From a virus (lineage: Duplodnaviria; Heunggongvirae; Uroviricota; Caudoviricetes): 25,564 bases of DNA. The translations under genes and the position numbers were made by a program. The DNA is taken from positions 1 through 25,564 of IMG/VR virus record IMGVR_UViG_2917860307_000003. One strand, 5' to 3'. This document shows, in pieces, positions 1,131 to 24,386 of the stretch. Each line of letters opens with the position of its first letter. Within the stretch, counting starts at the first letter, position 1. Below the pieces are notes generated by a model. It saw nothing but the letters and a program-made list of their open reading frames with translations, had not been told where the DNA came from and did no database searches.

Positions 1131-1467
1131 ATGCCTCATAACCCAAATACCTGGCCGGACTGGCTGGAGTTGTTCCAGAGCTGGTGGCGTGGAGATACGC
1201 CGCTGGGCGCAGTGATTATGTCGATTGTTATGGCTGGTTTGCGTATTGCCTATTTTGGTGGTGGTGGCGGCTGGAAACGAAAATCACTCGAAATTTTTGC
1301 TCTGTGGCGCTCTGACGCTGACATTTGCATCCGCGCTTGAGTATGTCGGATGGCCTAAATCGCTTTCTGTTGCCATTGGTGGTGGGGTGGGGCTGATCGG
1401 GGTCGATGCAATTCGTGGGGCTGCAATGAGAGTAATCGGTAACAAGTTTGGTGGCTCTAAGGAGTAA
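1131..1467 (+). pseudogene. S: Lambda S-like class I holin, apparently frameshifted (N-terminal part in one frame from ATG 1131, C-terminal part in the next frame ending 1467)
   Basis: Frame-3 translation MPHNPNTWPDWLELFQSWWRGDTPLGAVIMSIVMAGLRIAYFGGGG resembles the lambda S N-terminus/TM1; the frame-1 translation (…FASALEYVGW…VGLIGVDAIRGAAMRVIGNKFGG) resembles the lambda S C-terminus; the frame-1 ORF has no ATG (TTG only) and is preceded by an in-frame stop; frames switch within 1257-1290. Confidence 0.5.
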
Positions 1468-1947: not shown

Positions 1948-2398
1948 GTTGGTTATCGCTGCTTTCTTCGTTACTGTCATTGGTTCTTTTATCTTTTCAG
2001 CGAATCATTACCACAATAAAGCCATTGAATACAAAAAGCAGCGCGACGAAAACGCAATGGCATTAGATTCGGCTATGGCGACGCTCTCTGATATGCAGAA
2101 GCGTCAACGTGACGTAGCAGAACTTGACGCCAGATATACAAAGGAGCTTGCTGATGCTAACGCGACTATCGAAAGTCTCCGTGCTGATGTTTCTGCTGGC
2201 CGTAAGTGGCTGCGCGTCAAAGCAGTCTGTCCCGACATGCATAAAATCACCGCCGCCTCCGGCGTGGATGATGGCTCCAGCCCCAGACTTACTGACACCG
2301 CTCAACGGGATTATTTCGTTCTCAGAGAGCGCATTGAAACCATAACTAACCAATTGAATGGCCTGCAAGAGTATGTGAGATCACAGTGTTCATATTAG
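1931..2398 (+). CDS. Rz: Rz i-spanin
   Basis: 155-aa ORF with N-terminal TM segment then coiled-coil region; clear similarity to lambda Rz (QRDVAELDARYTKELADA…KAVC…TASGVDD…PRLTDTAQRDYF); start overlaps the end of R. Confidence 0.85.
   Translation: MKLSYKLVIAAFFVTVIGSFIFSANHYHNKAIEYKKQRDENAMALDSAMATLSDMQKRQRDVAELDARYTKELADANATIESLRADVSAGRKWLRVKAVCPDMHKITAASGVDDGSSPRLTDTAQRDYFVLRERIETITNQLNGLQEYVRSQCSY
2154..2345 (+). CDS. Rz1: Rz1 o-spanin lipoprotein, embedded in the +1 frame of Rz
   Basis: ATG 2154 preceded by AAGGAG; signal peptide with lipobox LAVSGC; proline-rich mature part (CASKQSV…PPPPAW…TPLNGIIS) matching lambda Rz1. Confidence 0.7.
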   Translation: MLTRLSKVSVLMFLLAVSGCASKQSVPTCIKSPPPPAWMMAPAPDLLTPLNGIISFSESALKP

Positions 2399-2436
2399 AA
2401 AAGTCTTACCATAAGATTTTTGTATATGGATGCATT

Positions 2437-2811
2437 ATGTCTCAATACGCGCGCGCTGCTTTAATTGCTTATTATTTGGTTGCTGATAATTCATTATCCC
2501 CTCGTGATGCATGGGAGGCTGCAGTCGCTGAGGTTACAGAAAGCGAATCGGCAAGAAAGAAAGGATGCCCAAGGGCAACGTTTCTCGCTCTGACGGATAG
2601 CGGTTATCTGAAGAATGTAAAACCACAGCATGGGGAGAGAAAGGTCGGTAAGTTGTACCAAAGGGCAATTGAAGTTGCGAATCTGATTCTTGATTTGCCC
2701 GGAATCAGCAAAGCTGAGTTAGTTGATAAAACTTGCTATAAAGACAGGCAAGGGTCTTATGACATTGTTCTGACACTCGCTCAGTACGGATTTCTTCAAC
2801 GTCCTCAGTAA
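2437..2811 (+). CDS. Hypothetical protein, 124 aa (accessory gene; function unknown)
   Basis: ORF in a lower-GC stretch between the lysis cassette and packaging genes; start uncertain (ATG 2437 has no obvious RBS; alternative GTG 2386 overlaps the Rz stop); followed by a strong terminator-like hairpin. Confidence 0.5.
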   Translation: MSQYARAALIAYYLVADNSLSPRDAWEAAVAEVTESESARKKGCPRATFLALTDSGYLKNVKPQHGERKVGKLYQRAIEVANLILDLPGISKAELVDKTCYKDRQGSYDIVLTLAQYGFLQRPQ

Positions 2812-2829
2812 GATATCAAGTGATTTATG

Positions 2830-2853
2830 GCCTCGCTTTTAGCGGGGCTTTTT
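2830..2853 (+). terminator. Intrinsic terminator downstream of the 124-aa accessory ORF
   Basis: 7-bp stem GCCTCGC/GCGGGGC (one G-U pair in RNA), 5-nt loop TTTTA, then TTTTT. Confidence 0.55.
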
Positions 2854-3002
2854 CACATCTGAATTTCACTGCGCACCCCACGCGCACATTATCACCCGAG
2901 CCTTTCAGAAAGTTGAGCCTGAGAACTGCCGTATATGGTGGCGACCATCTCGGGGCGGCTTTTCTGTGGGGCAGGCTCAATTTTCTAAAAGGTAATAGCG
3001 CT

Positions 3003-3500
3003 ATGAAAGCAATCACGCTTTTTAATACACCGATCCGTGTTGATGAATCAGGAATGATCTGCCTCACTGACATGTGGAAAGCTAGTGGTAAAAGTGAATC
3101 TGAATCGCCGTACCACTACCTGCGAAACAAGCAGACCAAAGAGTTCTTGGCTGAGCTGGAGAAAAACCACGAATCTGTGGTTTTTACGGAACGCGGTGTG
3201 CACGGTGGAACTTATGGAGGAAAGTTCGTTGCTTATGATTACGCAGCATGGCTAAACCCTGAATTTAAATATGCAGCCTATAAAGTCCTCGATGACTACT
3301 TCACCGGAGAGCTTCAGCATCGCAGCAGCTTAAGTGCACAGCTCAATATGAAGTGTCACGAGTTTGATCAGAAGAAAGATATGGCGAGCTTTTGCGGGCA
3401 GGGACTGGCTGCTTGGCGTTACACCAAGCCAGTTCTGATGGCTGAAATTAGTAACCTGGCTACCCAGCTGCAGCTCACAATACCCGGGCTGCATTCATAA
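3003..3500 (+). CDS. KilA-N (APSES-type) DNA-binding domain protein
   Basis: 165-aa ORF from ATG 3003; N-terminal pattern (ICLTDMWKASGKS…YLRNKQTKEFLAEL…GGTYGGKFVAYDYAAWLNPEF) matches the KilA-N domain as I recall it; the track's upstream extension from 2820 looks non-coding. Confidence 0.55.
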   Translation: MKAITLFNTPIRVDESGMICLTDMWKASGKSESESPYHYLRNKQTKEFLAELEKNHESVVFTERGVHGGTYGGKFVAYDYAAWLNPEFKYAAYKVLDDYFTGELQHRSSLSAQLNMKCHEFDQKKDMASFCGQGLAAWRYTKPVLMAEISNLATQLQLTIPGLHS

Positions 3501-3550
3501 GCGCTCGAATCAATATGCCTACCACACCACTCGTGTGCGGATGAACAGTG

Positions 3551-3679
3551 TCAGCTCATGTAAGACAGCAGATGGTTCAACCATATGTGGAAGTGTTCCA
3601 ATATCCAATTTGCGCAAAGCTTTATTATCATCTTAAGTAAGATATTGATTATCAGATTGATTAAATAATCTTTTTTCAT
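3551..3679 (-). CDS. Candidate small hydrophobic peptide (42 aa) in an AT-rich island; speculative
   Basis: Minus-strand ATG at 3679 with GAGGG 4 nt upstream; my translation is MKKDYLINLIINILLKMIIKLCANWILEHFHIWLNHLLSYMS; below the 60-aa cutoff of the supplied track. Confidence 0.25.
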   Translation of the reverse strand: MKKDYLINLIINILLKMIIKLCANWILEHFHIWLNHLLSYMS

Positions 3680-3773
3680 AATCCCTCTTCAATATTCAGT
3701 TTTAATGGAGGGAAGAATGCGGAGTTTGTGATTTGCGTTGTAGACAGAGAAGAGTTAAACGAGTCGATTTATC

Positions 3774-4124
3774 ATGCCTGCCTTAATCCCCAGAGCCTGC
3801 CGTGTTCGTGGCTGCCGCCATACCACCACAGACCCGTCAGGCTACTGCGAAAGCCACAAAAGCGAAGGCTGGAAGCAATACAAGCCAGGACAATCCCGTC
3901 ATCAGCGCGGCTACGGTTCGAAGTGGGACAGTATCCGCGCGCGTGTCCTGAAGCGTGACAAAGGCCTGTGTCAGTTATGTCTGCGTTCTGGTGTGGTGCG
4001 TGAGGCGAAAACTGTTGACCACATCATCCCTAAAGCGCATGGCGGCACTGATGCTGACAGTAATCTGCAGAGTCTGTGCTGGCCGTGCCATAAGGCGAAG
4101 ACGGCCCGTGAACGGTTAAAGTGA
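3774..4124 (+). CDS. HNH endonuclease (phage packaging-associated)
   Basis: 116-aa ORF with Cys-rich N-terminus and HNH core (VDHIIPKAHGGTDADSNLQSLCWPCHKAKT); sits immediately upstream of the terminase genes, as in HK97-like cos phages. Confidence 0.85.
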   Translation: MPALIPRACRVRGCRHTTTDPSGYCESHKSEGWKQYKPGQSRHQRGYGSKWDSIRARVLKRDKGLCQLCLRSGVVREAKTVDHIIPKAHGGTDADSNLQSLCWPCHKAKTARERLK

Positions 4125-4140
4125 TAATAATTCTCAACTG

Positions 4141-4215
4141 TCTGAGGGGAGGGGCGGGTCAAATCCCTGTGACCTGACGTCTTCCGGACTGCCCGCCCCA
4201 TCGTTTTTTTATACC
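4141..4215. other. Structured GC-rich element between HNH and terS; candidate cos/packaging site or terminator
   Basis: Perfect inverted repeat GGGGCGGG (4151-4158) / CCCGCCCC (4192-4199) enclosing an inner GGTCA/TGACC pair and a GACGTC palindrome, followed by a 7-T run (4204-4210). Confidence 0.35.
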
Positions 4216-4249
4216 CGCGAAAAATGAAATTTAACCAGGAGTGCCGCAT

Positions 4250-4633
4250 ATGGCTGGAACGGCGGGGCGTTCCGGGCGTCGCCCCAAGCCAACGGCGCGC
4301 AAGGCGCTGGCCGGAAACCCCGGCAAGCGAGCCCTGAACAAAGATGAACCCGTTTTTACGCCCATCAAAGGTGTTGAGCCACCGGAGTGGTTCGCTGAAG
4401 AAGAGCTCCCTCTCGCCACGATCATGTGGCAACTGACAACCAAAGAACTCTGCGGTCAGGGCCTGCTGTGCGTGACTGACCTCGCAGTGCTTGAGCGGTG
4501 GTGCGTAGCCTATGAGTTCTGGCGACGTGCCGTGAAAAATATTGCCAGACAGGGCAACACCATCACCGGTGCAATGGGCGGCATGGTCAAAAATCCGGAG
4601 CTGACCGCCAAAAAGAACAGGAGTCCGAGATGA
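4250..4633 (+). CDS. Terminase small subunit (P27/HK97 gp1-like), N-terminal frame; probably continues by a -1 shift to 4743
   Basis: ATG 4250 preceded by AGGAG; Arg/Lys-rich N-terminus (MAGTAGRSGRRPKPTARKALAGNPGKRAL) typical of this family; stops at 4631-4633 while a clean 42-codon continuation exists in the -1 frame. Confidence 0.8.
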   Translation: MAGTAGRSGRRPKPTARKALAGNPGKRALNKDEPVFTPIKGVEPPEWFAEEELPLATIMWQLTTKELCGQGLLCVTDLAVLERWCVAYEFWRRAVKNIARQGNTITGAMGGMVKNPELTAKKNRSPR

Positions 4634-4743
4634 GCAGTACGGGGGCAATGCTCGGACTCGACCCCAGCAGCCGCCAGCGTCTGATTGGCCTGGCGGGGCA
4701 GAAGAAAGCCACTAACCCGTTTCTGAAAATTATCGAATCATGA
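4630..4743 (+). CDS. Either the C-terminal segment of the small terminase (reached by -1 frameshift at 4609-4615) or an independent 37-aa ORF translationally coupled at both ends
   Basis: ATG 4630 overlaps the terS stop as ATGA and has AGGAG 6 nt upstream; my translation is [37 protein letters not shown]; its stop overlaps the terL start as ATGA. Confidence 0.5.
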
Positions 4744-6416
4744 GCCGGAAATCTTACCCCAACGTAAATGCTGCAAATCAGTATGCCCGGGATGTCGTGC
4801 GCGGAAAGATTGTTGCCTGCCAGTTTGTGATTCAGGCCTGCCAGCGCCATCTTGATGACCTGATGGCGGAAAAAAGTAAGTCGTTTCGTTACCGCTTCGA
4901 CAAGGACCTGGCTGAACGGGCCGCCAAATTTATTCAGCTGTTGCCGCACACCAAGGGTGAGTGGGCATTTAAACGGATGCCCATCACGCTGGAGCCGTGG
5001 CAGCTATTTGTGATCTGCTGTGCGTTTGGCTGGGTCAATAAAGGCACCCGGTTGCGCCGCTTCCGGGAGGTGTATACCGAAATTCCCCGTAAGAACGGTA
5101 AATCGGCAATCTCTGCCGGTGTTGCCCTGTATTGTTTTGCCTGTGATAACGAGTTTGGCGCGGAAGTGTATTCCGGTGCCACGACAGAGAAACAGGCGTG
5201 GGAAGTCTTTCGTCCGGCGCGACTGATGTGTAAACGCACACCAATGCTGACGGAAGCGTTCGGGATTGAGGTTAACGCCTCAAACATGAACCGTCCGGAG
5301 GATGGCGCGCGGTTTGAACCGCTGATCGGTAACCCCGGTGATGGTTCATCACCCCACTGTGCGGTGGTGGATGAATATCACGAGCACGCCACCGATGCGC
5401 TTTACACCACGATGCTTACCGGGATGGGGGCGCGACGTCAGCCACTGATGTGGGCCATCACCACTGCCGGGTACAACATTGAGGGGCCGTGCTACGACAA
5501 GCGGCGGGAAGTCATCGAGATGCTCAACGGCTCGGTGCCCAACGATGAACTGTTCGGGATCATCTATACCGTTGATGAAGGTGACGACTGGACCGACCCG
5601 CAGGTGCTGGAAAAAGCCAATCCAAATATTGGCGTGTCGGTTTATCGCGAATTTTTGTTAAGTCAGCAGCAGCGTGCGAAAAATAACGCCCGTCTGGCAA
5701 ACGTCTTTAAAACAAAACACCTCAATATCTGGGTGTCGGCGCGTTCGGCGTATTTCAACCTGGTGAGCTGGCAGAGCTGTGAGGATAAATCACTGACTCT
5801 TGAGCAATTCGAGGGGCAGCCGTGCATTCTGGCCTTTGACCTGGCGCGTAAACTGGATATGAACAGCATGGCGCGACTTTATACCCGCGAGATTGACGGT
5901 AAAACGCATTACTACAGTGTGGCCCCGCGTTTCTGGGTACCGTATGACACGGTGTACAGCGTCGAGAAAAATGAAGATCGCCGGACAGCCGAACGCTTTC
6001 AGAAATGGGTGGAAATGGGCGTCCTGACCGTTACCGATGGTGCTGAGGTGGATTATCGCTACATCCTCGAAGAGGCCAAAGCGGCGAACAAAATCAGCCC
6101 GGTCAGCGAGTCACCCATCGACCCCTTCGGGGCGACCGGGCTCTCACATGACCTTGCTGATGAAGACCTGAACCCCATCACTATCATTCAGAACTACACC
6201 AACATGTCCGACCCGATGAAAGAGCTGGAAGCGGCAATTGAATCGGGGCGCTTTCATCATGATGGCAATCCCATCATGACCTGGTGTATCGGCAACGTGG
6301 TCGGCAAAACCATTCCGGGTAACGATGATGTGGTGAAACCCGTCAAAGAGCAGGCGGAAAACAAAATCGATGGTGCAGTTGCGCTGATTATGGCGGTTGG
6401 CAGAGCCATGCTGTAA
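4740..6416 (+). CDS. Terminase large subunit
   Basis: 558-aa ORF directly downstream of the small terminase; size and position typical of an HK97-family large terminase. Confidence 0.85.
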
Positions 6417-6485
6417 CGAGAAAGAAGACACGCTGTCTGATCACATTGAGTCCTACGGGATCCGCTCGCTTTAACTGAGGTAATT

Positions 6486-6668
6486 ATGATCATGCTGATT
6501 TTCGCGCCGCTGGTGGGCGTGCTGGGTGCGCTTTTGCTGGCGTATGGTGCCTGGCTGATTTATCCCCCGGCGGGTTTTGTTGTTGCCGGGGTGCTGTGCC
6601 TGTTCTGGTCGTGGCTGGTGGCGCGATATCTCGACCGTACACAGCCGTCTGTCGGCGGAGGTAAATAG
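6486..6668 (+). CDS. Small membrane protein (60 aa, two predicted TM helices); function unknown
   Basis: GAGG-containing RBS upstream of ATG 6486; strongly hydrophobic sequence; stop overlaps the portal GTG start. Confidence 0.45.
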
Positions 6669-7909
6669 TGTTCTTTTCGGGATTATTTCAACGAAAAAGT
6701 GACGCGCCGGTGACCACGCCAGCAGAGCTGGCGGATGCTATCGGGCTGTCATACGACACCTATACCGGAAAGCAGATCAGCAGCCAGCGGGCCATGCGAC
6801 TGACGGCGGTTTTTTCCTGCGTCAGGGTGCTGGCAGAGTCGGTCGGGATGTTGCCCTGCAATCTGTATCACCTGAACGGCAGCCTGAAACAGAGAGCCAC
6901 CGGCGAACGTCTGCATAAGCTGATCTCCACGCATCCCAATGGATATATGACGCCGCAGGAGTTCTGGGAGCTGGTGGTCACCTGTCTGTGCCTGAGGGGA
7001 AACTTTTACGCCTACAAAGTGAAAGCATTTGGCGAAGTGGCTGAACTGCTGCCCGTCGATCCTGGCTGTGTGGTACCGAAGCTTAACAGTAGCTGGGAGC
7101 CGGTCTATCAGGTCACATTCCCGGACGGCTCCACGGATGTGCTGACCCAGGAGGATATCTGGCATGTGCGCACGCTGACGCTGGACGGCCTGGTGGGACT
7201 GAATCCCATCGCCTATGCCCGCGAGGCAATATCGCTGGCGGCAGCGACCGAAGAGCACGGGGCCAGACTGTTCAGCAATGGCGCGGTGACGTCGGGTGTG
7301 TTGCGTACAGAGCAGACGCTGTCGGATCAGGCTTATGAGCGCCTGAAGAAAGATTTTGAGGAGCGTCACACCGGGCTTGGCAATGCTCACCGCCCGATGA
7401 TCCTTGAGATGGGGCTGGACTGGAAGTCGATGGCGTTGAACGCAGAGGACAGCCAGTTCCTGGAAACCCGCAAGTTTCAGCTTGAAGAAATCTGTCGTCT
7501 GTTCCGTGTGCCATTGCACATGGTGCAGAACACCGATCGCGCCACCTTCAACAATATCGAAGAGCTGGGGCTCGGATTTATCAACTATTCACTGGTGCCG
7601 TATCTGACCCGCATCGAACAGCGGATCAACACCGGACTGGTACGAAAAAGTAAGCAGGGCGTTTATTACGCCAAATTTAACGCCGGGGCGTTACTGCGCG
7701 GGGATATGAAGTCCCGTTTTGAAGCCTACGCCACCGGGATCAACTGGGGAATTTACTCTCCCAATGACTGCCGCGACCTGGAAGATATGAATCCGCGTCC
7801 CGGTGGTGATGTCTATCTCACACCGATGAACATGACCACGAAACCCTCCGATGGCAGTAAAGCCGGTAAGCAGAAGGATAACGCCAATGCAGACGAAACA
7901 ACGTCTTGA
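6668..7909 (+). CDS. Portal protein (HK97 family)
   Basis: 413-aa ORF between terminase and prohead protease; GTG start with GGAGG 8 nt upstream. Confidence 0.8.
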   Translation: MFFSGLFQRKSDAPVTTPAELADAIGLSYDTYTGKQISSQRAMRLTAVFSCVRVLAESVGMLPCNLYHLNGSLKQRATGERLHKLISTHPNGYMTPQEFWELVVTCLCLRGNFYAYKVKAFGEVAELLPVDPGCVVPKLNSSWEPVYQVTFPDGSTDVLTQEDIWHVRTLTLDGLVGLNPIAYAREAISLAAATEEHGARLFSNGAVTSGVLRTEQTLSDQAYERLKKDFEERHTGLGNAHRPMILEMGLDWKSMALNAEDSQFLETRKFQLEEICRLFRVPLHMVQNTDRATFNNIEELGLGFINYSLVPYLTRIEQRINTGLVRKSKQGVYYAKFNAGALLRGDMKSRFEAYATGINWGIYSPNDCRDLEDMNPRPGGDVYLTPMNMTTKPSDGSKAGKQKDNANADETTS

Positions 7910-8537
7910 TGTACCGCTGAGTCTGAAATCTGTCAGTGACTCCGGTGAGTTTGAAGGGTATGGCTCCGTCTTTGGTGTAAAAGACAGCCACGATGATGTG
8001 GTGATGTCCGGGGCATTTGCTGCTTCCCTGCGGGCGTGGAGTGACAGAAAAGCGTTGCCTGCGCTGCTCTGGCAGCACCGCATGGATGAGCCCATCGGTG
8101 TTTACACCGAAATGAAGGAAGACGATGTCGGGCTTTACGTCAGGGGGCGGTTGCTCATTGATGATGATCCCCTGGCAAAACGCGCACATGCACACATGAA
8201 GGCCGGTTCGTTAACCGGCCTTTCTATTGGGTACGTCCTGAAGGACTGGGAATATGACCGGACGAAAGAAGCCTTTCTGCTGAAAGAAATCGACCTCTGG
8301 GAAGTCAGTCTGGTGACGTTTCCGTCTAACGACGAGGCGCGGATTAGCGACGTCAAGAACGCGCTGGCCCGCGGGGAAATCCCCGAACAGAAAAAAATCG
8401 AAAGAGTCCTGCGTGATGTCGGACTCTCCCGTACCCAGGCCAAAGCATTCATGGCCGGGGGCTATGGCGCACTGTCCCTGCGCGACGCTGAGGATGTGGG
8501 CTCTGCACTGAATGCACTGAAAAATCTGAACTTCTAA
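7887..8537 (+). CDS. Prohead maturation protease (HK97 gp4-like)
   Basis: ATG 7887 with AAGGA RBS; motif region SGEFEGYGSVFGVKDSHDDVVMSGAF typical of HK97-type prohead proteases; the track's upstream start at 7851 is less likely. Confidence 0.75.
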   Translation: MQTKQRLDVPLSLKSVSDSGEFEGYGSVFGVKDSHDDVVMSGAFAASLRAWSDRKALPALLWQHRMDEPIGVYTEMKEDDVGLYVRGRLLIDDDPLAKRAHAHMKAGSLTGLSIGYVLKDWEYDRTKEAFLLKEIDLWEVSLVTFPSNDEARISDVKNALARGEIPEQKKIERVLRDVGLSRTQAKAFMAGGYGALSLRDAEDVGSALNALKNLNF

Positions 8538-8551
8538 TCAGGAGAAATACG

Positions 8552-9757
8552 ATGGCGGTTGATATTAAAGATGTCGAACAGGTCGCGCAGGAGCTGCAGC
8601 AGAAGTTTGACGACTTCAAAGCAAAGAACGACAAGCGCGTGGATGCGATTGAGCAGGAAAAAGGCAAACTTGCCGGGCAGGTGGAAACCCTGAACGGGAA
8701 ACTCAGCGAGCTGGAAAATCTCAAAAGCGATATTGAAAAAGAGCTGCTTGAGCTGAAACGTCCGGCAGGTGGTACGCAAAATAAACTGGCCACCGAGCAT
8801 AAAGAAGCGTTTGTGGGCTTCCTGCGTAAAGGCCGTGAAGATGGTCTGCGCGATCTGGAGCGCAAGGCATTACAGGTGGGCACCGATGAAGACGGCGGCT
8901 ATGCCGTGCCGGAAGCACTGGATCGCAACATTCTCACCCTGCTGAAAGATGAAGTGGTGATGCGCCAGGAAGCCACGGTGATCACCGTTGGCGGTTCCGA
9001 CTACAAAAAACTGGTGAATCTGGGCGGCACGGCTTCCGGATGGGTGGGCGAGACTGACGCGCGCTCCCAGACTGCCACCTCAAAACTGGGACTGATTGAA
9101 CCTTTCATGGGGGAAATCTACGGTAACCCGCAGGCCACCCAGAAAATGCTGGATGATGCTTTCTTCAACGTGGAGGCCTGGATCAACAGCGAGCTGGCAA
9201 CCGAATTTGCCGAACAGGAAGAAATTGCCTTTACCTCCGGCGATGGTACCAAGAAGCCAAAAGGGTTCCTGGCGTATGAATCCACCGATGAAACCGATAA
9301 GGTCCGGGCGTTCGGCAAACTTCAGCATATTGTATCCGGCGAAGCGACGACGGTGACCGCAGACGCCATTATCAAACTGATTTACACGCTGCGTAAGGCA
9401 CACCGCACTGGCGCGAAGTTCATGATGAACAACAACAGCCTGTTTGCCATCCGTCTGCTGAAAGACAGCGAGGGTAACTATCTGTGGCGTCCGGGGCTGG
9501 AGCTGGGGCAGCCGTCCTCTCTGGCGGGTTACGGTATCGCTGAAAACGAACAGATGCCGGATATCGCCGCTGATGCGAAAGCCATTGCATTTGGCAACTT
9601 CAAACGGGGTTACACCATCGTTGACCGTATCGGCACCCGCATTCTGCGCGACCCGTACACCAATAAACCGTTTGTCGGTTTTTATACCACCAAGCGCACC
9701 GGCGGGATGCTGGTCGATTCGCAGGCCATCAAACTGCTGAAGATTGCAGCGGCGTAA
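8552..9757 (+). CDS. Major capsid protein (HK97 fold) with N-terminal coiled-coil delta/scaffold domain
   Basis: 401-aa ORF; first ~75 aa are charged coiled-coil; AGGAG RBS; follows the protease as in HK97. Confidence 0.85.
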   Translation: MAVDIKDVEQVAQELQQKFDDFKAKNDKRVDAIEQEKGKLAGQVETLNGKLSELENLKSDIEKELLELKRPAGGTQNKLATEHKEAFVGFLRKGREDGLRDLERKALQVGTDEDGGYAVPEALDRNILTLLKDEVVMRQEATVITVGGSDYKKLVNLGGTASGWVGETDARSQTATSKLGLIEPFMGEIYGNPQATQKMLDDAFFNVEAWINSELATEFAEQEEIAFTSGDGTKKPKGFLAYESTDETDKVRAFGKLQHIVSGEATTVTADAIIKLIYTLRKAHRTGAKFMMNNNSLFAIRLLKDSEGNYLWRPGLELGQPSSLAGYGIAENEQMPDIAADAKAIAFGNFKRGYTIVDRIGTRILRDPYTNKPFVGFYTTKRTGGMLVDSQAIKLLKIAAA

Positions 9758-13436: not shown

Positions 13437-13792
13437 TGGCCCGTATCGGGGGAACCTGTTATTTCAAAATTGACGGTCAGCAGCTATCGCTGACCGGCGG
13501 CATTGAGGTGCCCATGAACAGGACGGTCAATGATGACATCATCGGCCTGGACGGCTCAGTGGACCGCAAGGAAACTCACCGTGCGCCTTATGTCAAAGGG
13601 ACCTTCAAGGTGCCGAAGAATTTTCCGGTGAACAAAATCACCTCGTCTGATGAGATGACAATCACTGCCGAGCTGGCGAACGGTCAGGTCTATGTACTGT
13701 CGTCTGCCTGGCTGCACGGCGAAGCGAACCATAATGCCGAAGAAGGCACGGTTGATCTTGAGTTCCACGGTGAAGAAGGGGATTACCAGTAA
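13436..13792 (+). CDS. Tail tube protein (Mu gpM-like)
   Basis: 118-aa ORF between sheath and chaperone; TAATG overlaps at both ends. Confidence 0.8.
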   Translation: MARIGGTCYFKIDGQQLSLTGGIEVPMNRTVNDDIIGLDGSVDRKETHRAPYVKGTFKVPKNFPVNKITSSDEMTITAELANGQVYVLSSAWLHGEANHNAEEGTVDLEFHGEEGDYQ

Positions 13793-14061
13793 TGAAAGAG
13801 CTTGAGTTAAAGAAACCGATTACCGCTCATGGCGAGACACTCTCCGTACTGGAGTTTGATGAGCCCACCGGGAAAGATGTCCGCGAGCTGGGATATCCCT
13901 ACCAGATGAATCAGGATGAGTCCGTCAGACTTCTGGCGCATGTGGTGTCGAAATACATCGTGCGGCTGGCGAAAGTGCCGCAAAGCTCTGTCGACCAGAT
14001 GTCTCCGGCAGACCTGAATGCAGCGGCGTGGCTTGTGGCCGGTTTTTTCCTCCAGGCCTGA
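13792..14061 (+). CDS. Tail assembly chaperone, short product
   Basis: 89-aa ORF directly upstream of the tape measure gene, ending just after a T-TTT-TTC heptamer. Confidence 0.75.
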   Translation: MKELELKKPITAHGETLSVLEFDEPTGKDVRELGYPYQMNQDESVRLLAHVVSKYIVRLAKVPQSSVDQMSPADLNAAAWLVAGFFLQA

Positions 14062-14210
14062 CGGCTGAATACCTCACTGATCGCTTCTTTGACTGCGCCA
14101 GTTACTGGCGCATTAATCCTTTCGAATTGCTGAATATGCCGATCAGTGAAATTCCCTTACTGGTCAGTCAGGCAAACAGGATAGAGCAGGAGAAACGCAC
14201 ACATGGCTGA
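13792..14210 (+). CDS. Tail assembly chaperone, long product made by programmed -1 frameshift at T-TTT-TTC (14043-14049)
   Basis: Canonical X-XXY-YYZ heptamer 12 nt before the frame-0 stop; the -1 frame stays open to 14210, overlapping the tape measure start. Confidence 0.65.
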
Positions 14211-16067: not shown

Positions 16068-16514
16068 TTACTGTGCGAACACGCAATTTCGGCCTGATGG
16101 GGAGCCGACAATTCTGGACATTTTTTCGCAAATAACAGCTACCTGTTCTCCTTTTTTAAGAGCAGCAGCTGTTGATTTTTCAGAGTCTTGCATCTCCATT
16201 CTTGCTGGCATGAATTCATTTTCAGTTCTGAATTTAATAATTATAGAGTCAGTAAAGTCCTTATCAATGGATTGTACGATACCTCTAACGGCGATTAATT
16301 TACCTTTTAACTGTTCATCGGTAGCGACTTCATTTTCTTCATACTCTTTAAACAGCTGTCGAGCAGTAGTGTTGTAGATTTCTTTTTGCGGTGCCGCAGC
16401 TTCCGTATCGGATGAGTATGAAGAATTAGAGCCTTTATCGTTATTGCCTGCAAAATATCCAATAATCACCAACCCGATGAAAATATATAAAATCCATTTT
16501 AATAATTTCTTCAT
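16068..16514 (-). CDS. Moron: membrane-anchored protein with an OB-fold-like (tRNA_anti-like) C-terminal domain; function unknown, possibly superinfection exclusion
   Basis: 148-aa ORF on the opposite strand to the whole tail operon, in an AT-rich insert; N-terminal TM anchor (MKKLLKWILYIFIGLVIIGYFAG); C-terminal pattern (NEVATDEQLKGKLIAVRGIVQSIDKD…KKGEQVAVICEKM) resembles that family as I recall it. Confidence 0.6.
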   Translation of the reverse strand: MKKLLKWILYIFIGLVIIGYFAGNNDKGSNSSYSSDTEAAAPQKEIYNTTARQLFKEYEENEVATDEQLKGKLIAVRGIVQSIDKDFTDSIIIKFRTENEFMPARMEMQDSEKSTAAALKKGEQVAVICEKMSRIVGSPSGRNCVFAQ

Positions 16515-21625: not shown

Positions 21626-22396
21626 ATGCATCGTATAGACACGAAAACCGCGCAGAAGGATAAGTTCGGCGCGGGTAAGAACGGTTTTACCCGTGGTAAC
21701 CCCCAGACCGGCACGCCTGCCACCGATCTGGATGATGACTACTTTGACATGTTGCAGGAGGAGCTTTGCAGCGTGGTGGAGGCATCCGGTGCCAGCCTGG
21801 AGAAGGGGCGAAACGACCAGTTGCTTACCGCGCTTCGTGCGTTGCTGTTAAGCCGCAAGAATCCGTTTGGCGATATCAAATCGGATGGCACTGTGCAAAC
21901 GGCTCTCGAAAACCTTGGTTTGGGAGAAGGTTCGGCATTACCCGTTGGTGTGCCTGTTCCGTGGCCTTCCGCCACTCCGCCAACAGGCTGGCTGAAATGT
22001 AATGGTGCTACCTTTGATAAGGTGAAATATCCCAACCTTGCCAAAGCATACCCTTCAGGGAAACTGCCTGATTTACGTGGTGAGTTTATTCGTGGCTGGG
22101 ATGACGGACGTGGCATTGATGCAGGACGTGCTTTATTGAGCATTCAGGCTGGGATGCTGGAGAAGCACCGCCATATTGTTGTTGCCAACGATGGCTATGA
22201 TTCAGGTGAAGAATGGGAGCTGGCTACAATTTTTCAGAACACATACACACAAGGTCGGGGGCTTGACGCCGTTTTTACAGGGGGAACCCTTATTCCGGCT
22301 CCGAGGTTGCATTCACGAGGAAGTATTGGTAACACGGGCGGGAACGAAACACGACCGCGCAATATTGCATTTAACTTTATTGTGAGGGCTGCATAA
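21626..22396 (+). CDS. Tail fibre protein in current orientation: constant N-terminus fused to variable C-terminus Sv
   Basis: 256-aa ORF; a recombination site lies inside it at 21905-21930, so the first ~100 aa are constant and the rest is on the invertible segment. Confidence 0.75.
21905..21930. repeat. Left inversion crossover site (pix/gix-like) inside the tail fibre gene
   Basis: CTCGAAAACCTTGGTTTGGGAGAAGG; its reverse complement shares 15 contiguous identical bases (CTTCTCCCAAACCAA) with the site at 23751-23777. Confidence 0.75.
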
Positions 22397-22998
22397 TGAA
22401 TCACGCGGTATTAAATAACGAACTTATTGCCGTGCAGGAAGGAAACATTATCGTTTACAACTATGACAGTGAGACGCGGGAATATATTTCTGCATCAACT
22501 GAATATCTTGCTGTGGGTGTCGGTATTCCGGCATATTCCTGTTTAGACGCTCCAGGTACACATAAGGCTGGTTATACAATTTGCCGTTCTGTGGATTTAA
22601 AATCATGGGAATATGTGTCAGACCATCGTGGTGAAATTGTCTATAGCACCGAAACAGGGGAATCAAAAGAAATCAAAACTCCGGGTGATTACCCTGAAAA
22701 TACAACCACTATCGCCCCGTCAACGCCATACGATAAATGGGATGGTGAGAAATGGGTGACAGATACTGAGGAGCTACATCACGTCGCAGTAGAAACGGCA
22801 GAAACACAGCGTCAGTCAATGATTGAAACTGCAATGGCTTCCATTAGTCTGATTCAACTGAAATTGCAGGCCGGGCGGAAGCTGATGCAGGCAGAGACCA
22901 CCCGACTTAACACTGTGCTGGATTACATTGACGCGGTGACGGCAACAGATACCAGCACAGCGCCGGATGTTATCTGGCCTGAACTGCCGGAGGCGTAG
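22396..22998 (+). CDS. Tail fibre assembly protein (Tfa/U, expressed orientation)
   Basis: 200-aa ORF overlapping the fibre stop; C-terminus (…TSTAPDVIWPELPEA) matches the C-terminus of the convergent paralogue. Confidence 0.75.
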   Translation: MNHAVLNNELIAVQEGNIIVYNYDSETREYISASTEYLAVGVGIPAYSCLDAPGTHKAGYTICRSVDLKSWEYVSDHRGEIVYSTETGESKEIKTPGDYPENTTTIAPSTPYDKWDGEKWVTDTEELHHVAVETAETQRQSMIETAMASISLIQLKLQAGRKLMQAETTRLNTVLDYIDAVTATDTSTAPDVIWPELPEA

Positions 22999-23410
22999 GC
23001 CATTCAATATCTGGAGCACTGGAAATATCGACCACTTCCAGTGCGTCCAGATAATCCAGCCACAAATTATATTGCGCCAGTTCCTCACCTTTCAGACGAC
23101 CAATAGCTGCTTTACCAGGCCATTGCCTGCTGTTCATGTGTTCGTTGGCAGTATCTATGCGCTTCTGACGCTCGTATTCTGCCATTTTTATCAGTTCTTC
23201 AGGTTCCAGTGGCGGAATATTACCCCATACGGGATAACCATCATCATCCGCAATCCTCATTTTTCCCTCTGGTGGCTTCTGAAATGCAGAAAAAGTTTCT
23301 TCATCAACCTCCACGCCTTTTTCTGGCCATAACCCCACGGATTCATAATGTAATTTCAAAGCCAACGGATAGAAGGCGTTAGTTTTTGCATCATAAATAT
23401 ATTTGTTCAT
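22970..23410 (-). CDS. Alternative tail fibre assembly protein (Tfa'/U', silent orientation)
   Basis: 146-aa ORF convergent with tfa; shares the C-terminal motif (…SSAPDIEWPTPPA). Confidence 0.7.
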   Translation of the reverse strand: MNKYIYDAKTNAFYPLALKLHYESVGLWPEKGVEVDEETFSAFQKPPEGKMRIADDDGYPVWGNIPPLEPEELIKMAEYERQKRIDTANEHMNSRQWPGKAAIGRLKGEELAQYNLWLDYLDALEVVDISSAPDIEWPTPPAVQAR

Positions 23411-23412
23411 TT

Positions 23413-23777
23413 TTATTTCCCTATTGCAATCCAGTTAGCGCCAGCACCCGTTCCGCCAGTACGAGAACTCATTAAATAAAATGCAAGTAGTCCGCCTCCT
23501 GCCGGAGTTGTCGCAAAGGCAGGGCAATCTGTCGCACCGTTAACTGCACTGTCAAAAGACGTGGCAATACGATAACCAGATGTAAAAGGAATCGGGAAGT
23601 TTACAGTTGTTGGATAGCCGATTGGCCCTGCAATACTGACGCCAAACTGTATGATTGTACCATCCGGAAATTTCATCCAGCCTGGCCCCGACGTGAAGCT
23701 AGCCATATCCGGGATCTGATTTACCCCGGTTCCAACCTCCCGTTTTGCCGCTTCTCCCAAACCAACGTTTATGAAAA
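23413..23777 (-). CDS. Alternative tail fibre C-terminal cassette (Sv'), without its own start; fused to the constant N-terminus after inversion
   Basis: Minus-strand frame reads through the right recombination site encoding …GLGE…, in register with the same GLGE encoded at the left site in the fibre gene. Confidence 0.65.
23751..23777. repeat. Right inversion crossover site (pix/gix-like)
   Basis: CTTCTCCCAAACCAACGTTTATGAAAA, inverted relative to the site at 21905-21930. Confidence 0.75.
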
Positions 23778-23831
23778 TACAGAAATAACGAGCAAATGGC
23801 ATCATTCCTGCTTTTGTCAGGGAGATCTACC

Positions 23832-24386
23832 ATGCTTATTGGCTATGTACGTGTGTCAACAAATGACCAGAACACAGATCTACAACGTAATGCGCTGAAC
23901 TGTGCAGGATGCGAGCTGATTTTTGAAGACAAGATAAGCGGTACAAAGTCCGAAAGGCCGGGACTGAAAAAACTGCTCAGGACATTATCGGCAGGTGACA
24001 CTCTGGTTGTCTGGAAGCTGGATCGGCTGGGGCGTAGTATGCGGCATCTGGTCATTCTGGTTGAGGAGTTGCGCGAACGTGGCGTTAATTTTCGCAGCCT
24101 GACGGATGCTATTGATACCAGCACACCGATGGGGCGTTTTTTCTTTCATGTGATGGGTGCCCTGGCTGAAATGGAACGAGAACTGATTGTTGAACGAACA
24201 AAAGCTGGACTGGAAGCTGCTCGCGCACAGGGACGAATTGGGGGACGTCGTCCCAAACTTACACCAGAACAATGGGCGCAGGCCGGGCGATTAATTGCAT
24301 CAGGCGTTCCTCGCCAGAAGGTGGCGATCATCTATGATGTTGGTATATCGACACTGTATAAGAAGTTTCCGGTCGGAGATAAATGA
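23832..24386 (+). CDS. pin: Serine DNA invertase (Pin/Gin/Hin family)
   Basis: 184-aa ORF from ATG 23832; N-terminus MLIGYVRVSTNDQNTDLQRNAL with catalytic-serine context and C-terminal HTH; close to E. coli e14 Pin as I recall it. Confidence 0.9.
   Translation: MLIGYVRVSTNDQNTDLQRNALNCAGCELIFEDKISGTKSERPGLKKLLRTLSAGDTLVVWKLDRLGRSMRHLVILVEELRERGVNFRSLTDAIDTSTPMGRFFFHVMGALAEMERELIVERTKAGLEAARAQGRIGGRRPKLTPEQWAQAGRLIASGVPRQKVAIIYDVGISTLYKKFPVGDK

Follow-up and report, generated by a model that had tools for sequence, protein, structure and literature searches.

In Escherichia coli dnaX, −1 frameshifting takes place at the heptamer A_AAA_AAG, in which an AAA AAG lysine pair is preceded within a few nucleotides by a GGAG as Shine-Dalgarno-like element and followed 5 nt later by a stem-loop, and the shift gives the shorter product. 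The tetramer A_AAG was the most shift-prone one in a systematic study in E. coli, where tetramers without a stimulator supported approximately 0.15% frameshifting, barely above background, and A_AAG reached its maximum of 5.6% only in combination with the strong IS3 pseudoknot (PMC4066793). Programmed −1 frameshifting is also really present in phages of the type considered here, namely in the genes for the tail assembly chaperones. The small terminases (TerS) of SfII/SfIV/SfV/ST64B-type phages belong to the P27 family (TIGR01558/PF05119), and their genes are found in the order HNH-terS-terL, with an ATGA overlap between terS and terL. A literature search found no relevant report of a programmed frameshift in a small terminase gene, and a programmed terS frameshift would, to our knowledge, have been without precedent among small terminases.

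The window, i.e., the whole stretch of 25,564 nt analysed here, is contained in the Caudoviricetes virus record IMGVR_UViG_2917860307_000003, and is a prophage of the SfII/SfIV/SfV-like group, the head being of the HK97 type and the tail of the Mu type. It shares with the P27-family phages both the HNH-terS-terL order and the ATGA overlap; however, its terS is divided between two reading frames (Table 1). The gene starts at ATG 4250, with a same-frame upstream GTG at 4241 also given in the ORF listing, and frame 0, which ends ...ACC GCC AAA AAG AAC AGG AGT CCG AGA TGA when read from the sequence, yields 127 amino acids before the TGA stop at 4631–4633. The −1 frame, which begins GAA CAG GAG TCC GAG ATG ... 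at 4615, comprises 42 codons before it reaches TGA 4741–4743, which overlaps as ATGA with the terL start codon, ATG 4740. The two frames meet at C-AAA-AAG (4609–4615), the A5 run of which occupies 4610–4614. The initial annotation had reported the frame-0 stop, the open −1 frame with its ATGA overlap, the C-AAA-AAG motif, and an ATG at 4630 preceded by an AGGAG of its own (4619–4623); each of these was found at the position claimed for it.

Table 1 Features of the terminase region, with their positions in the window.
Feature	Position	Strand	Remarks
HNH endonuclease gene, 5′ of the terminase genes	3774..4124	+	PF01844 HNH, E 1.1e-16; same gene order in related prophages
terS as written	4250..4633	+	127 codons: first 122 authentic TerS, last five (NRSPR) out of frame before the premature TGA
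GGAG, proposed upstream stimulator	4597..4600	+	inside the PEL codons (CCG GAG CTG) of terS
A5 run, A6 in homologues; missing-base site	4610..4614	+	DNA alignment column 361; also an indel relative to SfII, 689R6, SfIV and E. coli LZSFT34
Authentic C-terminal 42 codons of terS (EQESEMSST...KIIES, then stop), displaced to the −1 frame	4615..4743	+	includes the 37-codon ORF from ATG 4630
9-bp hairpin in the terS coding sequence	4621..4659	+	present; neither significant nor conserved
terL	4740..6474	+	as written stops at TAA 6414–6416 (558 aa); minus one base, 577 aa with the end at 6472–6474

The family profiles relate the two frames to each other. The Pfam profile PF05119 (Terminase_4) is matched by the 127-aa ORF at profile positions 2–68 of 98 only, and the match reaches position 93 once the −1 frame is appended. 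On the NCBIfam equivalog profile TIGR01558 (P27-family small terminase), which has a cut-off of 45.6 bits, the 127-aa ORF as written remains below the cut-off with 40.2 bits, whereas the joined or corrected 164-aa protein exceeds it with 76.3 bits over profile positions 2–113 of 116; the 37-aa ORF alone aligns to positions 83–113. Since both profiles run across the frame break, the −1 frame codes for the authentic C-terminus of TerS. A sequence search of solved structures with the corrected TerS returned nothing at E values up to 1, and thus gave no structural context for the C-terminal 37 residues. The terL gene lies directly 3′ of terS, and its product matches PF03354 and PF20441.

The site at which the frames part becomes apparent from comparison with related phages. 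For the 601 nt surrounding the A5 site, 24 phage records give matches, the best of which span 602 nt; compared with SfIV, the DNA is 99.7% identical over the 601 nt. Seven phages were aligned, i.e., SfIV, SfII, SfV, vB_EcoM-720R4, 118970_sal3, Klebsiella ST101-KPC2phi6.3 and ST64B, and in all seven terS is a single 495-nt gene encoding a P27-family protein of 164 aa and ending in the same ATGA overlap. One A is the only length difference in this DNA alignment: six phages read GCC AAA AAA GAA and ST64B reads GCC AAG AAA GAA, as compared with GCC AAA AAG AA in the window. The alignment with intact small terminases that the initial annotation had called for thus places the C-terminal 42 residues in frame, with the run being A6 in six of the seven phages and AAGAAA in ST64B. 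Of the readings offered at that time, the single-base A5/A6 indel is now favoured, uninterrupted homologues with A6 (AAGAAA in ST64B) being the outcome named beforehand as contrary to recoding.

The same picture is obtained from complete bacterial genomes. The locus is present in 1,049 of 5,426 complete E. coli genomes, and a 76-nt query carrying A5 has an exact match in none of the 1,056 complete E. coli records with the locus, the best matches listed spanning 77 nt; with A6 restored, the query is matched exactly in 389 of these 1,056 records. When a spread sample of 60 records was inspected with the A6-restored query, all 59 near-full-length matches were without length difference, the 60th match being partial, and every record of the sample is annotated as a P27-family small terminase. 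At the level of sequence, the terS of the window is thereby shown to lack one base relative to all homologues examined. Restoration of one A gives a 164-aa protein that is encoded in identical form on at least 1,000 contigs, compared with 13 contigs for the exact 127-aa product, which scores below the family cut-off. At least four terS haplotypes, originating from different sequencing projects, are represented among the contigs with the 127-aa product, and eight of the ten A5 contigs examined also show single-base deletions in other base runs, e.g., T7 at 4204 and A6 at 4870. An example with such further deletions is the GenBank chromosome CP121673.1, the terL of which is broken into three ORFs, and a Salmonella protein with two substitutions also ends in KKNRSPR. 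Phase variation at the A-run was considered and rejected, because A6 appears short and the complete genomes hold no off-length allele.

The origin of the DNA bears on how the missing base is to be interpreted. Positions 2240–8916 of the window are 100% identical to PDIF01000039.1 (GCA_004745355.1), and a further look-up places more of the window on this contig. PDIF00000000 is the assembly of Escherichia cryptic clade II strain E2748, which was obtained with MIRA and SPAdes from Ion Torrent single-end reads of 35–400 nt at 45x, listed under SRX3260347, with no second platform mentioned (PMC6639607). The contigs of SRR6148327, which were assembled independently, evidently represent the same strain and share rare proteins with the window, show 0 SNPs relative to the deposited sequence over approximately 14.8 kb, and the only differences are five single-base run deletions (T7 at 4204, A6 at 4870, two C at 6124–6125 and C3 at 15506). 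At the terS site, the Logan assembly of SRR6148327 and the deposited assembly both have A5. Flow-based chemistry is known to miscall homopolymer lengths, and the terS locus shares with Ion Torrent miscalls the single-base change in a run, the draft based on Ion Torrent only, the presence of other unique run-length frameshifts, and the disagreements in run length between two assemblies of the same reads; no departure from this pattern was observed.

Two other genes in the window are affected by single-base run-length frameshifts relative to all references. The lambda-family holin gene (window 1131–1467) is split over two frames by a change from T4 to T5 at 1294–1298, and the premature stop in terL is due to an extra A at 6415, which turns CTG TAC GAG into CTG TAA CGA G; in each case, a full-length protein is regained once the extra base is taken out. 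The window version of the holin stretch has an exact match in 0 of 90 matching complete E. coli records, and that of the terL stretch in 0 of 1,160, with the best matches listed being one base shorter for both. Three contigs from unrelated samples (L022, L023 and L024), which differ in their starts and haplotypes, all end with ...CTGTA at window position 6415; this shared end is probably due to a branch of the assembly graph at a polymorphic codon, combined with an exact look-up of the 558-aa product that selects for such ends. Downstream of the prophage, four chromosomal genes (TetR, O-methyltransferase, esterase and TPR) are intact at approximately 87% identity to E. coli, however, these four are the only genes that could be compared, the ykgO-like region being too divergent, and since all of them are intact the check on chromosomal genes speaks neither for nor against an artefact.

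We consider it probable that the terS split is an Ion Torrent homopolymer undercall, in which A6 was written as A5 in an ordinary single-frame gene, and hence a sequencing artefact; we infer that sequencing, rather than an event in the cell, gave rise to the discrepancy. According to this explanation, terS would be an ordinary single-frame P27-family gene of 164 codons in an SfII/SfIV/SfV-like prophage, and the writing of A6 as A5 would displace the final 42 codons to the −1 frame and generate the premature TGA. Ribosomes in the living phage would translate AAA AAA GAA without any change of frame, and a recoding mechanism would not be involved. The main meaning of the undercall is one of quality control, in that draft assemblies from flow-based data yield frame splits at A- and T-runs. 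Such splits resemble dnaX-type recoding sites because runs of lysine codons are both slippery and error-prone, and they are quickly resolved by consulting close homologues and checking the sequencing platform.

A missing A could also reflect a real one-base deletion, in which replication slippage had converted A6 to A5 and left terS as a pseudogene in a decaying prophage, and in which the holin and terL frameshifts would likewise be real. The finding of A5 in each of the two assemblies available for the strain is compatible with such a deletion, as is the fact that natural frameshift mutations, too, favour homopolymers; moreover, the three frameshifts hit genes for lysis and packaging (holin, terS and terL), as would fit a prophage being inactivated, some 20 other structural genes are intact with 95–100% protein identity to relatives, and two other A5 contigs (L010 and L015) carry no further indels in the stretch covered. 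Against this stands an assembly based solely on Ion Torrent data and a change that is exactly the typical error of that platform, as judged from general knowledge of its behaviour. Furthermore, all three lesions are single-base changes in run length, unaccompanied by larger deletions, IS insertions or nonsense substitutions, the A5 allele is absent from complete genomes, and where A5 occurs elsewhere it is mostly found together with other homopolymer deletions. Taken together, we regard a real deletion as unlikely. A variant of this explanation, which we regard as very unlikely, is that A5 is real and that some full-length TerS is still made, either through a few-percent "savior" −1 slip at A_AAG helped by the fortuitous GGAG and hairpin, or by complementation of the truncated part by an ATGA-coupled 37-aa peptide; the phage would then be partly packaging-competent despite the lesion.

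The initial annotation had likened the site to dnaX and raised the possibility of a programmed −1 shift at C-AAA-AAG, stimulated by the GGAG and the hairpin, that would provide TerS isoforms of 127 and 164 aa. The resemblance to the dnaX geometry is superficial, with the GGAG 8 nt upstream of the motif, the hairpin starting 5 nt downstream of it, and the 0-frame stop five codons past it, and A_AAG is indeed the tetramer most prone to shifting in E. coli. However, a full X_XXY_YYZ heptamer in the 0 frame, as defined by the motif rules in PMC4066793, was not found at terS: the first base is C and not A, so that only the A-site tRNA can re-pair, unlike at the dnaX heptamer with its additional re-pairing in the P site, and slippage is confined to the A_AAG tetramer with the low efficiencies quoted above. 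Nor does the outcome correspond, since the shift gives a shorter product in dnaX, whereas in terS it would be needed to produce the normal full-length one. The flanking elements do exist as annotated, i.e., the GGAG, which is a bare tetramer, and a perfect inverted repeat, GAGTCCGAG (4621–4629) and CTCGGACTC (4651–4659), which encloses a 21-nt loop, but a stimulatory role of the hairpin is not supported. The hairpin has a folding energy of −17.8 kcal/mol, with a z-score of −1.76 relative to shuffled sequences, 11 of 200 of which fold as well, and the window contains 33 inverted repeats with a length of 9 nt or more and arms up to 45 nt apart, this one included. Four of its nine pairs are broken in each of two homologues of approximately 80% identity, with a single two-sided change, and the covariation observed was reached by 70 of 500 shuffles; in the same two homologues, from the Klebsiella phage and ST64B, the columns of the GGAG read TGAA. 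The same flanking elements, including an unchanged hairpin, sit in intact A6 phages that need no shift. The two-frame layout is absent from every homologue examined, including those of SfII, SfIV, SfV, SfI and ST64B, and from complete genomes, all homologues examined being single-frame with either the extra A or the non-slippery AAG AAA. Hence, there is nothing to mark the terS site as a selected recoding site, a programmed shift is extremely improbable, and the comparative evidence, taken at face value, rules out that the split is the first programmed frameshift of a small terminase. The converse arrangement, a programmed shift in intact A6 phages that gives a truncated TerS, was also rejected, as ST64B has no A-run and the hairpin is not conserved.

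The open −1 frame had further been suggested to represent a separate, translationally coupled gene of 37 codons that starts at ATG 4630. This ORF has a good ribosome-binding site, with 6 nt between the AGGAG and the ATG, and an ATGA overlap at each end, and gene callers have called the exact 37-aa product on 107 contigs. On the other hand, its residues are those that match TIGR01558 at profile positions 83–113, and they correspond to residues 128–164 of the intact protein in a cluster with 2,892 members, the AGGAG is just what the Q-E-S codons of terS spell, and a frameshifted terS lies upstream in all of the examined contigs in which the ORF is called. An independent origin of what is the C-terminus of the intact homologues is thus next to impossible.

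Several other features of the window deserve mention. The tail assembly chaperone pair (window 13792–14210) likely represents a genuine programmed −1 frameshift. The first ORF (13792–14061, Phage_TAC_7) ends GGT TTT TTC CTC CAG GCC TGA and contains the full heptamer T_TTT_TTC at 14043–14049, which is the candidate slip site, and the ORF in the −1 frame (14028–14210) extends to the start of the tape measure gene; the same overlapping pair of chaperone ORFs is annotated in vB_EcoM-689R6. This arrangement differs from the terS split in the gene concerned, in the presence of a full heptamer, and in the two-ORF layout annotated in a relative, which terS lacks.

The cos region is presumed to lie between the HNH gene and terS (4125–4215), as the left ends of linear phages map there, that of SfII to 4125 and those of SfIV and SfV to 4183; the interval contains GGGGCGGG (4151–4158) and CCCGCCCC (4192–4199), followed by T7 (4204–4210). 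The tape measure and DNA circularization genes flank a gene on the opposite strand for a 148-aa OB-fold protein (tRNA_anti-like; 16068–16514, minus strand). E. coli LZSFT34 also has this gene, but SfII and SfIV cannot be aligned over the stretch that contains it, and it looks like an inserted accessory gene.

An exact look-up of the 130-aa gp53-like protein (23413–23805, minus strand) found no record. At window 22396–24386, the plus strand carries a tail-fibre assembly gene that is opposed by inverted genes of the minus strand, of the tail-fibre assembly and gp53-like types, and the minus-strand copies share only 48–64% identity with their counterparts in the closest complete genome. The inverted genes are adjoined by a Pin-type recombinase (approximately 23832–24386), an arrangement that corresponds to an invertible host-range segment.
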